Origin: Candidatus Krumholzibacteriia bacterium
Lineage (GTDB): Bacteria; Krumholzibacteriota; Krumholzibacteriia; G020349025
Assembly: GCA_035649275.1 (NCBI GenBank)
Contig: DASRJW010000024.1
Span: 3,759-67,758 of the forward strand
DNA length: 64,000 nucleotides
Direction: 5' to 3'
Position numbers and translations under genes: made by a program. Below the pieces are notes generated by a model. That model saw only the letters and a list, made by a program, of their open reading frames with translations, was not told the origin of the DNA and searched no databases. Below are positions 18,150 through 21,345 of this stretch, piece by piece. Numbering within the stretch: the first letter of the stretch is position 1; each line of letters starts with the position of its first letter.

Positions 18150-18793
18150 CGGGAGGCCTCGCGCACCAGCGCCGCGCGCACCGGCGAGGCGTCGGCGCCG
18201 GCGAGCCGCAGCGGTAGCGCCACGAGGAGGTATCGTCCGGGCTCGACGTGCTCCAAGACCAAGCCCTCGAGAACGCCCATGTCGTGCTTTGCTACTGCTT
18301 GGTGGCTTTCCAAGCGCTTGTCGTCGAAGGGGTCGATGGAGGGGGTGTCGATGCCCACGAGGCGCACCCCCGCGGCGGCGAGGAAGTCGACCAGCTCGGG
18401 AGACAGGCTGTTGAAATCGCGGTTCCAAGCCTCGGGGTCCGGCAACGAGCCGGTCTTGAACAACACCCGCGGCGCCACGATCGCAGTGCCGACGTGGGTG
18501 GGGCGAAGGCGCCCGCCCCGCGGTGCCGACACCGCAAGCACCTGACAGGTTCCGTAGTACAAAGAGAGATCCCGGGAGCCGATGTCCTGTCCGTCGGCGA
18601 CATAGTGGCGCGGCGCATCGGCATGGGCGCCCACGTGCAGCGTCGTCTGCACGGCGCCGAGAGTGAGGTTGTCGCCTCGGGCGATGTCCAGGCTCTCCTC
18701 GTGCCGGTAGGGGACGTCTCCCGGCCACACCTGCAGGCGGTGCGTCACGAGCGGCGAGATGTCGATGAGCTCGGGGTCGCCGCCGCGCTTCAT
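18146..18793 (-). CDS. Cyclase-family protein / kynurenine formamidase-like (KynB)
   Basis: Cyclase-family motifs ([24 protein letters not shown]). 215 aa. Confidence 0.75.
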
Positions 18794-21345
18794 GCCTCTC
18801 CTCCGTCACCGCAGCGGGCGATCACCTTGAACTCGACGGCGATGGGTGTGGGCAAGGCCCGCACCTCCACCGTCGTGCGGGTGGCGCCGATGGAGCCGAA
18901 GGTCTCGGCGTAGATGCGGTTGAAGGTCTCGAAGTCGCGCCGCATATCGATGAGGAACACGGTGACGTCGAGGACGCGTTCGAGGCTGGAACCGGCAGCT
19001 TCCAGCACGATGCGCACGTTGTCGATGACGGCACGGGTTTGCGCGGCCACGTCGTAGTCCCGGGCCCGTCCGGCGGCGTCGCGCACCGGGCCGCCGGGGA
19101 TGGCGTCCGTGCCCGCTTGGCGCGGGCCGATCCCGGAGAGGTAGAGGAGGTCTCCGACCCGGCGCGCGTGCGGGAACGCACCGACGGGAGTCGGAGCGGC
19201 CTCGGTGACGATGCCCTCGCCGGCGGCAGCCGGCGCCGTCTCGAGACCCGGCGCGGCGGTACGGACCACAGCCGCGCGAGAGCTGGCGCGACCGGCGGAG
19301 AGGACGTTGCGCTCGCCGGCATAGACGTCCACGTCTTCCTCGTCGAACTCCAGGTTCGAGGCCGCGTTCGCCGTCGGCAAGAGGCCGACCACGGCGCCGC
19401 CCGTGCCCCAGAGCGGCCGGTACTCGAAGACATGGCCCTTGTAGTTGTTGTTCTGGCCGAGTGCGGACGCCAGCCACCAGATCGCCTTCAGCTTCTGGTC
19501 GGCATGGGCCTGGGAGCTGAACTGGCGCGCCAGCTGGGAGACGTCCTCGATCCTCCCCTCGCCGAGAATCTCCAGCAGCTTACGGTTCCACTCGTCGTCC
19601 TTGAGGGAGGAGATGCGGTCCTTCTTCGGATCGATGTCTTCGGTGAACAGGCGGTTCGAGAGCGCCGTGACCGCGATGCAGACGGCGCGCCGCCCGCTGG
19701 TGCGGAGCGCCGCGGCCGCCGCCTTGCCGAGCACGATGGTCTCGGCCCGATCGGCGTACATGTTGCAGGAGACGACGCAAGCCGGCAGGCGGTTCTCCGG
19801 ATCGAGCAGCTTGAGCGCCACCACCGTCCCGGTGTCGATGGGGAAGCCGTGATAGGCCACGGTGCGCGCGTGCAGGCCCCGCTCCCGCGCCGACTTCTCG
19901 TAGGCCGCGGCGAAGGCGCTGTCCATGCGGAAGCGATAGGGGATGGCGCCGAGCTCGTGCCATTCGGGGTCCACGTGCACCCACTCCGGCGTCGGATGCG
20001 CCTGGATCTGATGGCCGATCACGCTCAACCACTGGGTGCTGTAGAGGAGGAGGAGATCGGCGTCGAGGGCGGCGATCTCGGCGCGTACCGACTCGAAGGC
20101 GCGGCGGAGCGCCTGCCACCCCGGCGAGCGTTCGGGGACGAGGAGCGGTTGGGGCAGGCCGGGGACGATGTAGCCGGCGACGGCGCCTCCCGGGCGGCCG
20201 TCGCTGCTCGTCGCCGGCGTCGGCGCGGGAGGAAGCGGCGAAGGCTCCCGTCGGGCCGAGGCTTTGCGCTGCTTCGCAGCCGCCGCAGCGGTCGGTGCCG
20301 GCAGGGCCAAGGCGCGCGCCGCGCGGAGCGAAGGAGTCGCGCTCGGGCCCATGGCGCGCCCTGCCTGCTTACCGAGCGCCGCGGTCTCCGCGTCCCACTC
20401 GACGACGGCGTTGCCCGTGCCGATCACCGTGCCGTAGCCGTGCACCTCCGCGGGATAATCGGGGAAGCCGAGGGCGGCGAGGAGCCAGCTCAGGCAGCCC
20501 GCATTCGCTTCGCTCTCGGTCTGGTCGATGAAGTCCGGCAGCTCGTCGAAGAGCTGCCGCGTGCGTCCCTGGCGCATGTGCTCCAACACCCGCATGTCCC
20601 ACAGGTACTGGCCGTGGTGGTAGGGATGTTCGTGCGACATGTCCTCCGGGATCGGCGGCTCCACCGTGAAGTGACGGTGGCTGAGGGAATTGGAAGCGAG
20701 CAGCAGGGCGCGCCGGCCGCTCTTCTCGATGGCGCGGCGCGTGGCTTCCCCTAGCTTGAGCATCTGCTGCTGGCCCACGTCGTTGCTGTAATAGAAGAAA
20801 GCGGCGTTGGAGGAGATCCCGACGATGGGGAGATCCCAGCCGGGATGCACCATGTGGCACGAGGTGATGGTGCCGTAGTCCACACGGAAGGCGGGGTTCC
20901 GCATCATCTTGGTCACCAGACCGGCGGTGCGCGCCTCGTCGCGGATGGCCTCGGCCAACTCCACGTCCACATGCACGTCGAAGTGATAACGGAAGAGGTT
21001 GGGGAAGACGGGATCCACCGACAGGCTGGCGAAGTGCGGCACGCCGAGGAAGTGATGGCCCACGACGGTGCGCCAGTGCGGCGAGTGCACCACCAGGACG
21101 TCGAAGTCCTTCGTGGCGAGCCGCTGCCGCAGCCTCTCATAGCCCCAGCGGATGTTCTCCCAACCGCCTTCGGAGCGCGGTTCGTTCTGCGGCGGGTTCT
21201 CCGCGTAGACCAGGTGCGGCGGGTGCGGCGCCAGGATGCCGGCGACGATCGTGCCGCCCCCGGGCTCCTTCCGCCGGGACGTCCGCTTCTCCTGCGAGGC
21301 GCGATGGCGATCGCGTCGGCTCGCGCGTTTCCGTGTGCTCGGCAT
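18790..21345 (-). CDS. Tri-domain fusion: LigB-type extradiol dioxygenase domain (AmnB-like), second LigB-type domain (AmnA-like) and a C-terminal RidA/YjgF deaminase domain (AmnD-like)
   Basis: Domain 1 has VLVVHSPHW...HPYHHG. Domain 2 starts at [20 protein letters not shown] and is LigB-like. The C-terminal RidA signature is [13 protein letters not shown]...VLDVTVFL...[10 protein letters not shown]. The start is taken at MPSTRKRAS (ATG 21345); the track ORF extends to 21585. Confidence 0.7.

Follow-up and report, generated by a model that had tools for sequence, protein, structure and literature searches.

A probable three-domain 2-aminophenol dioxygenase-deaminase, apparently assembled by stepwise gene fusion, in a kynurenine-type operon of Candidatus Krumholzibacteriia

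The 2-aminophenol meta-cleavage clusters of Pseudomonas, Burkholderia and Comamonas are canonical amn operons of the amnBACDFEHG type. Operons of this kind encode the ring-cleaving dioxygenase, an aldehyde dehydrogenase (ALDH) and a deaminase together, for the upper three steps of the pathway (PMC10470539, PMC3790839). The described dioxygenases, AmnAB/CnbCaCb (PDB IDs: 3VSG-3VSJ and 8IHG) and the Micromonospora ARO dioxygenase (PDB ID: 7TXY), pair a catalytic β-type LigB subunit with a degenerate, ligand-less α-type LigB subunit, and the deaminase AmnE of Pseudomonas sp. AP-3 (PDB ID: 6IZH; AmnD elsewhere) is a free protein of 142 aa. An earlier interpretation made without database searches (the sequence-only reading) had stated that the three are separate proteins in characterised pathways, and this agrees with the solved structures (chains A and B of 3vsg, 7txy and 8ihg, and 6izh). 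Here we analysed a 64,000-nucleotide stretch of DNA (the window, G+C about 68%) from a Candidatus Krumholzibacteriia bacterium (assembly GCA_035649275.1, contig DASRJW010000024.1, positions 3,759 to 67,758 of the forward strand), in which one gene joins all three modules in a single reading frame. Its product is probably a three-domain 2-aminophenol dioxygenase-deaminase that arose by stepwise fusion, with a separately encoded ALDH acting between its two activities; we could show the intact reading frame, the identities of the domains, the conserved catalytic residues, the recurrence of the protein, the series of fusions and the operon context, whereas we infer the substrate, the order of reactions, the oligomeric state and what the fusion is for.

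The fusion gene lies on the minus strand and runs from an ATG at 21345 down to a TGA stop at 18790-18792, giving 851 codons without interruption (residues are numbered 1 to 851 on this scale, and all features of the fusion are on the minus strand). A Shine-Dalgarno-like GGAGAA precedes the ATG by about 8 nt, and there is no further ATG, GTG or TTG between this start and the first conserved residue (aa 31). Pfam scans of the window, which covered the open reading frames (ORFs) of the gene cluster and, outside it, those of about 200 aa and more, found two LigB matches and one Ribonuc_L-PSP match in the fusion. AlphaFold2 (AF2) modeled the whole chain as three confident folded domains joined by two disordered linkers; the arrangement of the domains relative to one another and the docking of the tail described below were not confident (predicted TM score, pTM, 0.47). 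The Pfam and PDB matches, which go far beyond what chance would give, and the domain boundaries in the AF2 model thus bear out the proposal of the sequence-only reading that this 851-aa polypeptide comprises AmnB-like and AmnA-like LigB domains followed by a RidA/AmnD-like domain.

The first folded domain (aa 31-330; 20356..21255) is AmnB-like and predicted to be an Fe(II) extradiol dioxygenase. Within aa 28-331 it matches the β subunits of solved enzymes with E values of 7e-126 (3vsg_B), 9e-122 (8ihg_A) and 3e-111 (7txy_B), and it is about 70% identical to solved 2-aminophenol dioxygenase β subunits. The closest of these matches, 3vsg_B, is the β subunit of a 2-aminophenol/2-amino-5-chlorophenol 1,6-dioxygenase and aligns with aa 31-326 without gaps. 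In the Comamonas aminophenol dioxygenase CtAPD, Fe(II) is bound by His13, His62 and Glu251, with Tyr129 and His195 as second-sphere residues (PMC5291488). The ungapped alignment places His41, His90 and Glu279 of the fusion at the positions of the iron triad and Tyr157 and His223 at those of the second-sphere pair. All five CtAPD active-site residues are kept in this domain, as are the Fe triad and second-sphere Tyr/His shared by AmnAB/CnbCaCb and the Micromonospora enzyme, and ring cleavage of 2-aminophenol is predicted.

Ahead of this domain stands a basic N-terminal extension (aa 1-30; 21256..21345) that precedes the first residue aligned to the solved β subunits. It is rich in Arg and Lys and strongly basic, and AF2 places a low-confidence helix at aa 4-22. 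Its length ranges from 0 to 46 residues across the triple-fusion orthologues, and its sequence varies too. The β subunit of the ARO microcompartment likewise bears an N-terminal extension of about 29 residues; no shell genes were seen at the fusion locus. We considered an ARO-type microcompartment, hinted at by the 7TXY match and by this extension, and rejected it: no shell-protein Pfam match was found among the ORFs scanned, the cluster included, and Candidatus Krumholzibacteria is another phylum than the Actinobacteria, to which ARO loci are exclusive (PMC10470539).

Linker 1 (aa 331-386; 20188..20355) is rich in Ala, Pro, Ser, Thr and Gly and disordered, with an AF2 predicted local distance difference test (pLDDT) score below 50 at aa 332-379. 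In the orthologues it spans 51-70 aa, of which 51-75% are Ala, Pro, Ser, Thr or Gly, and shows little conservation; in relatives with separate genes its position is taken by a stop codon and a short gap, or by a change of frame. Whereas AmnAB/CnbCaCb and the Micromonospora dioxygenase keep their α and β subunits apart, the fusion holds both in one chain, connected by this 56-residue disordered linker.

The second domain (aa 387-655; 19381..20187) is an AmnA-like, non-catalytic LigB domain. Its matches are to α subunits, namely 7txy_A (E about 1e-61; 212 bits; aa 387-654), 3vsg_A (E 8e-52) and also 8ihg_B, with bit scores of 212, 180 and 167 to α subunits against 103-114 to β subunits. The positions of the iron ligands read PGLPQP and YSTQW, and the metal histidines are absent; none of the five CtAPD active-site residues is kept in this domain. 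The pairing of a catalytic with a degenerate LigB module is the same as in the known enzymes. The α match is much weaker (E 1e-61 to 5e-48) than the β match (7e-126); within its own family the AmnA-like domain is strongly conserved, with numerous invariant columns.

Compared with canonical AmnA/CnbCa, a separate protein of about 270 aa, the α domain of the fusion is joined on both sides and carries an added conserved tail of about 20 residues. This acidic motif, EFDEEDVxVYxGxRNVL (aa 664-682; 19300..19356), is defined by invariant columns: Glu666, Asp668, Glu669, Gly677, Arg679, Val681 and Leu682 are unchanged in 31 bacterial and archaeal sequences. The same tail forms the C-terminal end of free-standing AmnA in Marine Group II archaea and in some Bdellovibrionales, whereas the canonical α subunits 3vsg_A (271 aa) and 7txy_A (279 aa) stop before it; it is therefore a hallmark of this AmnA clade. 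AF2 confidence for the tail is low (about 55). It may be a docking element for RidA, the ALDH or AmnB. Linker 2 follows (aa 683-711; 19213..19299), disordered in the AF2 model (pLDDT below 50 at aa 678-711) and variable in both length and sequence among the orthologues.

The C-terminal domain (aa 712-851 and the stop codon; 18790..19212) is a RidA-type domain by profile search (PF01042, 77.6 bits against a gathering cut-off of 27.3), as the sequence-only reading had supposed, and a predicted 2-aminomuconate deaminase. Its best PDB match, over aa 713-843, is AmnE (6izh_A, E 2e-23 to 9e-25). In AmnE, the conserved cleft residues are Ser35, Gly36, Arg117 and Lys135, and the hexamer contacts include Arg56, Met96 and Pro126 (PMC6742747). 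The fusion has Ser737, Gly738, Arg823 and Lys840 at the cleft positions, Arg823 corresponding to the Arg that binds the substrate carboxylate, and Arg760, Met801 and Pro832 at the hexamer contacts. The extended Lp2 loop is shared as well: it aligns with that of 6izh with 3 gap positions, against a 12-residue gap for the generic RidA proteins 2dyy and 1x25. This loop bears on whether the domain might serve in general damage control, quenching reactive enamine or imine by-products near the dioxygenase, a reading to which the canonical RidA Arg, kept here, and the scores of the generic RidA proteins PH0854 and ST0811 (76 and 70 bits, against 90 for AmnE) lend something. We consider it very unlikely, given the AmnE-type loop, a linkage to AmnA that is conserved across phyla, and the report that the deamination of 2-aminomuconate is accelerated only by the specialised AMD-clade Rid proteins and not by generic RIDA (bioRxiv 10.64898/2026.06.05.730449). 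A deaminase of the AmnE kind, set here as the C-terminal domain of a dioxygenase, fits the domain better.

A fusion of this kind could come from an error that unites three genes in an assembly or through a frameshift, and in two close relatives of the same class (loci L058 and L066; loci related to the fusion are numbered L001 onwards) amnB is indeed a separate gene in a different frame. In a frame plot, third-position G+C stayed between 0.86 and 0.93 in one frame across 18800-21200, both low-complexity linkers included, and this uniform signal, unbroken through the linkers, gives no hint of a hidden frameshift or internal stop. The identical protein is deposited at NCBI as HZM14699.1 ('Rid family hydrolase [Candidatus Krumholzibacteria bacterium]', from a 117.6-kb contig), and identical or near-identical 851-aa copies occur in ENA and JGI assemblies, so that the 851-aa protein is found in four independent sources. 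One orthologue cluster holds 10 full-length members (895-902 aa). No interruption occurs in any of eight orthologue clusters at 70-90% identity, and one orthologue lies on a closed Latescibacterota chromosome (CP070763.1, locus L004). Since the exact protein and its full-length orthologues recur in independent assemblies, an artefact is excluded for practical purposes, and we give it next to no chance.

We then placed the fusion among its relatives. A locus scan that took one genome for each prokaryotic species gave at least 597 loci, and reading frames and stops were inspected in the best 80 of them; architectures were counted in the 120 best database matches to the fusion. Ten of these matches, at 69-100% identity and including two truncated or partial ones, have the AmnB-AmnA-RidA architecture; 108, from multiple phyla and 470-600 aa long, have the two domains AmnA-RidA, and 2 are AmnB-AmnA. 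Among the best 80 loci, three adjacent separate genes are found in Marine Group II archaea (Poseidoniales) and some Bdellovibrionales, and amnB followed by a fused amnA-ridA in Thermoanaerobaculia, Planctomycetota, Myxococcota, Bdellovibrionales, Eisenbacteria and some Krumholzibacteriia. The triple fusion occurs there only in the window and its closest relatives (L001, L002, L004 and L005) and is confined to one Krumholzibacteria/Latescibacterota clade. No independent triple fusion below 50% identity was present in a representative library, which returned only tandems of three RidA domains and AmnA-RidA forms. The database search suggested by the sequence-only reading thus found the same architecture again, and the joining of dioxygenase and deaminase modules is no one-off, the AmnA-RidA fusion being widespread over phyla. 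These forms make up a series with the triple fusion as its last step, in which three adjacent genes probably first gave an AmnA=RidA protein beside a separate AmnB and then AmnB=AmnA=RidA. Database labels for the fusion and its relatives read merely 'Rid family hydrolase' or 'alpha subunit'. A full-text search of the published literature found no description of a LigB-RidA fusion, and a 2015 survey of the Rid family mentions fusions, none of them with dioxygenases.

Two groups of relatives have features of their own. In the Marine Group II archaea the separate RidA gene (11863-12510 in L008, with equivalents in L010 and L055) encodes an N-terminal extension of about 80 residues, which holds a glycine-rich hydrophobic stretch, AGGAVGAAAGVAVGGPVGGIVGGVVGKK, resembling a membrane or glycine-zipper segment. 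The archaeal loci carry no more than the three genes; at L008 these stand among unrelated neighbours, and the locus therefore gives no clue to the substrate. In the representative library, three proteins (P0121, P0125 and P0221) consist of three tandem RidA domains, 54-59% identical to the RidA domain of the fusion, and are presumably covalent trimers; one has an extra N-terminal region of 460 residues.

For the chemistry, we propose that the AmnB domain, held by its AmnA partner in cis, would open 2-aminophenol, or a very close o-aminophenol, to 2-aminomuconate 6-semialdehyde (step 1), that the separate ALDH would oxidise this semialdehyde to 2-aminomuconate (step 2), and that the RidA domain would hydrolyse the enamine/imine to 2-oxohex-3-enedioate (4-oxalocrotonate) and ammonium (step 3). 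The sequence-only reading had placed the ALDH outside the fusion, in the adjoining gene, which is correct; the gap that it gave as 33 nt measures 32 nt. The same reading held that the fusion would channel the unstable 2-aminomuconate-type intermediate. This part of the argument is weak: the fused activities would be steps 1 and 3, with a separate protein, the ALDH, acting in between, and because they are not consecutive, direct channelling is unsupported unless the ALDH is recruited. At pH 7.6 the half-life of 2-aminomuconate is about 160 min, and the semialdehyde decays non-enzymatically to picolinate (bioRxiv 10.64898/2026.06.05.730449). The most labile intermediate is thus the semialdehyde, the substrate of the ALDH, which weakens the channelling claim further. 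The benefit of the fusion is likely a fixed 1:1:1 stoichiometry and co-assembly of the complex rather than direct channelling.

The fused steps would be consecutive if the RidA domain deaminated 2-aminomuconate 6-semialdehyde itself, to 2-hydroxymuconate semialdehyde, with the ALDH then serving as a 2-hydroxymuconic semialdehyde dehydrogenase; the semialdehyde would be shielded from cyclising to picolinate. The contrast in stability between the two intermediates speaks for this order, as does chemical knowledge, the semialdehyde bearing the same 2-amino-carboxylate end for the RidA Arg. The best NCBIfam model for the ALDH is also that of the 2-hydroxymuconic semialdehyde dehydrogenase (TIGR03216; 616 bits, below the cut-off of 693), although this match does not discriminate, because AmnC-type enzymes are close relatives of the same model. 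The nearest solved relative of the RidA domain is a 2-aminomuconate deaminase with which it has the long loop in common, and the ALDH gene lies 5' of the fusion, following an amnBAC-type logic. On balance we regard deamination ahead of oxidation as unlikely, and oxidation ahead of deamination remains our preferred order.

How the fused chain would assemble can be considered from its relatives. RidA active sites are located between the subunits of a trimer; in AmnE two such trimers are stacked back to back (PMC6742747). The dimer of the solved ARO dioxygenase is held together by the β subunits (PMC10470539). The simplest closed assembly would be a D3 hexamer with a RidA double-trimer core and three dioxygenase dimers held on flexible linkers, an arrangement that we propose because it satisfies the symmetries of both the RidA double trimer and the β-subunit dimer.

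The fusion is the fifth gene of a tightly packed minus-strand operon that runs in the order short-chain dehydrogenase/reductase (SDR), luciferase-like monooxygenase (LLM), asparaginase-like protein, ALDH, fusion and a 215-aa gene, an arrangement also found in L001 and L002. Neighbours were counted in 24 bacterial loci and the window (25 loci), and no conserved neighbours were found in these beyond the ALDH, the asparaginase-like protein, the monooxygenase, KynB, the SDR and tryptophan 2,3-dioxygenase (TDO). The ALDH (21378..22850, minus strand; 490 aa; PF00171, E 4.5e-171; 21 of the 25 loci) is AmnC- or 2-hydroxymuconic semialdehyde dehydrogenase-like and directly 5' of the fusion. The 215-aa gene on the other side (18146..18793, minus strand; 17 of the 25 loci) encodes a homologue of the kynurenine formamidase KynB (PF04199; PDB ID: 4cog, E 1.3e-47, and also 4cob, 4co9 and 4cz1). 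It is translationally coupled to the fusion, with an ATGA start/stop overlap and a GGAGGAGAGG sequence within the last codons of the fusion; a second ATGA overlap joins the asparaginase-like gene and the ALDH gene.

Upstream of the ALDH is a gene (22847..24097, minus strand; 416 aa, start uncertain; 21 of the 25 loci) for a serine amidohydrolase like the class-3 L-asparaginases of the Rhizobium etli type (PF06089, E 6e-48), matching the structures of ReAV and ReAIV with E values of about 1e-15. In ReAV, Ser48, Lys51, Ser80 and Lys263 are catalytic and Cys135, Cys189 and Lys138 are zinc ligands (PMC8602277). The equivalents of Ser48 and Lys51 (Ser-x-x-Lys), Ser80, Lys263, Cys135 and Cys189 are kept, and the zinc ligand Lys138 is replaced by Glu. 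About 85 residues extend the protein at its N terminus, and it is 359 aa long in L001 and 416 aa in L002.

The next gene (24094..25350, minus strand; 418 aa; 19 of the 25 loci) encodes a very divergent luciferase-like flavin-dependent monooxygenase that only just reaches its Pfam model (PF00296, 37.8 bits) and for which no PDB relative was found by sequence. It belongs to a family with 5182 database relatives, the best matches being 67-99% identical. AF2 modeled it with a pLDDT of 88, and a Foldseek search with this model identified the LLM TIM-barrel, the best matches being RslO1 (PDB ID: 7bip) and luciferases at TM scores of about 0.6. We rejected Foldseek as a guide to its chemistry: the matches were solely generic LLM folds (RslO1, luciferases, Mer, SsuD, RutA and MsnO8), which cannot separate Baeyer-Villiger oxidation from hydroxylation. 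The operon begins with the SDR gene (25356..26156, minus strand; 266 aa; PF13561/PF00106; 11 of the 25 loci). Divergently transcribed on the plus strand is a TDO gene (26141..27382; start uncertain, with the Pfam match beginning at aa 53; PF03301, E 1e-58; PDB IDs: 4hka/9esd, E 1.3e-48), present in five of the 25 loci and adjacent also in L002, L062, L067 and L070, and 3' of it lies a gene for a major facilitator superfamily (MFS) transporter (27388..28650, plus strand; PF07690), a TDO-MFS pair that occurs in L002 as well.

The cluster (18146-28650) recurs in L001, L002, L061, L063, L067, L070, L078, L079 and L082, often with TDO and MFS genes nearby, and its hosts are Krumholzibacteria, Latescibacterota, Planctomycetota, Myxococcota, Bdellovibrionales, Thermoanaerobaculia and Eisenbacteria. 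Kynurenine 3-monooxygenase (KMO), kynureninase, cupin-type 3-hydroxyanthranilate 3,4-dioxygenase (HAO) and ACMS decarboxylase (ACMSD) were found neither in the Pfam scans of the 64-kb window nor among the conserved neighbours of the 24 loci. Nor did the window scans or the 24 related loci yield a 4-oxalocrotonate decarboxylase, a 2-keto-4-pentenoate hydratase, an aldolase or an acetaldehyde dehydrogenase. Both a classical amn cluster and a complete kynurenine cluster were therefore rejected as descriptions of the window. Like canonical amn operons, the locus encodes dioxygenase, ALDH and deaminase together; in place of lower-pathway genes, which were not found, it has the monooxygenase, the asparaginase-like protein, KynB, the SDR and TDO. 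Because it is coupled to KynB, forms a conserved operon of tryptophan/kynurenine type and lacks lower meta-cleavage genes in these scans, we do not regard it as a classical amn xenobiotic cluster. The sequence-only reading had missed this context. With the kynurenine pathway the locus shares the first enzymes, TDO and KynB, and, towards the end, a semialdehyde dehydrogenase and a 2-aminomuconate deaminase of the RidA type, whereas a LigB dioxygenase, an LLM and an asparaginase-like hydrolase stand in place of the KMO, kynureninase, cupin HAO and ACMSD that were not found in the window. In the published literature we found no link of a 2-aminophenol dioxygenase with kynurenine formamidase or TDO, with a luciferase-like monooxygenase or with an asparaginase; the operon context is new, conserved and undescribed in the literature.

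Co-transcription with KynB and the adjoining TDO gene also raise the question of whether the dioxygenase acts on 3-hydroxyanthranilate or 3-hydroxykynurenine, replacing the cupin-type HAO. Chemical knowledge allows for this, both candidates being o-aminophenols in which the bond to be cleaved is equivalent. However, the catalytic domain aligns gap-free, at about 70% identity, with enzymes characterised on 2-aminophenol/2-amino-5-chlorophenol, and KMO, kynureninase and ACMSD are missing from the window and from the conserved neighbours as described above. Replacement of HAO accordingly strikes us as improbable, and 2-aminophenol remains the substrate that we favour.

Several points weigh against the fusion being a 2-aminophenol dioxygenase-deaminase with the ALDH acting between its activities. 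In the RidA domain, AmnE Glu88 corresponds to Asp793, and the domain scores 80.6 bits with NCBIfam TIGR00004, below the trusted cut-off of 106.25; this low score would fit a specialised rather than a housekeeping RidA. The ALDH does not reach the trusted cut-off of TIGR03216 or that of TIGR02299, and these models therefore do not settle its substrate. The hexamer is purely conjectural, since AF2 gave no confident inter-domain packing. Finally, the true aromatic substrate could differ from 2-aminophenol, because tryptophan/kynurenine enzymes are encoded in the operon and genes of a lower meta-cleavage pathway were not found there.

The conserved operon suggests that 2-aminophenol is made from kynurenine. 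On this basis we speculated, from gene context and chemical reasoning, about a route for tryptophan in which TDO and KynB would form kynurenine, and the luciferase-like monooxygenase would insert oxygen between the aryl ring and the ketone in a Baeyer-Villiger reaction, giving a 2-aminophenyl β-ester of aspartate. This ester could rearrange to N4-(2-hydroxyphenyl)-asparagine, from which the class-3 asparaginase-like serine hydrolase would free L-aspartate and 2-aminophenol; AmnB=AmnA, the ALDH and RidA would then turn 2-aminophenol into 4-oxalocrotonate. The progressive fusions and the invariant acidic AmnA tail would mark a three-enzyme assembly that recruits the ALDH. Such a route would be economical in chemical terms and would explain why an asparaginase homologue and KynB are conserved beside an aminophenol dioxygenase. 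The proposal as a whole, with the fusion acting last in an undescribed, widespread route around KMO, kynureninase, HAO and ACMSD by Baeyer-Villiger and asparaginase-like steps, with a natural origin of the amn genes and with an assembly that recruits the ALDH, is tentative, and we hold it to be possible but doubtful.

If true, it would add a new pathway of tryptophan degradation, and the 'xenobiotic' amn genes carried by degraders of nitrobenzene and aminophenol would derive from a natural amino-acid pathway; to our knowledge, amn genes are known only from pollutant degraders. Taken alone, the fusion is a modest curiosity, because its three catalytic modules belong to well-known families. Separate genes, AmnA=RidA and AmnB=AmnA=RidA together form a textbook 'Rosetta stone' series, which argues that dioxygenase and deaminase work as a single physical entity also where no fusion joins them; the acidic tail of AmnA, being invariant, offers a concrete handle on this idea. 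In at least 7 uncultivated bacterial lineages, the conserved neighbours connect kynurenine formation with a 2-aminophenol dioxygenase.

Around the cluster, a PMT_2-family membrane glycosyltransferase (16407-18145) and a di-haem oxidoreductase (DHOR; 15277-16206) are encoded 3' of KynB on the same strand, as they are in L001. In L001, the closest relative, IS66-family transposase genes and a phage-type integrase (14903-17536) lie a few kb downstream of the cluster.

Elsewhere in the window, a respiratory block on the plus strand (2946-14919) encodes a multihaem cytochrome c, a large Fe-S protein and an NrfD-like membrane protein (alternative complex III-like) and continues with SCO1/SenC and then cytochrome c oxidase subunits II, I and III. 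On the minus strand, 1694-2800 encodes an EgtD-like S-adenosylmethionine-dependent histidine methyltransferase (PF10017, E 1e-102) and so hints at biosynthesis of the ergothioneine type, and 30322-33096 encodes a Kelch-repeat protein of 924 aa, whose C-terminal sorting domain for type IX secretion is consistent with an organism of the FCB group.

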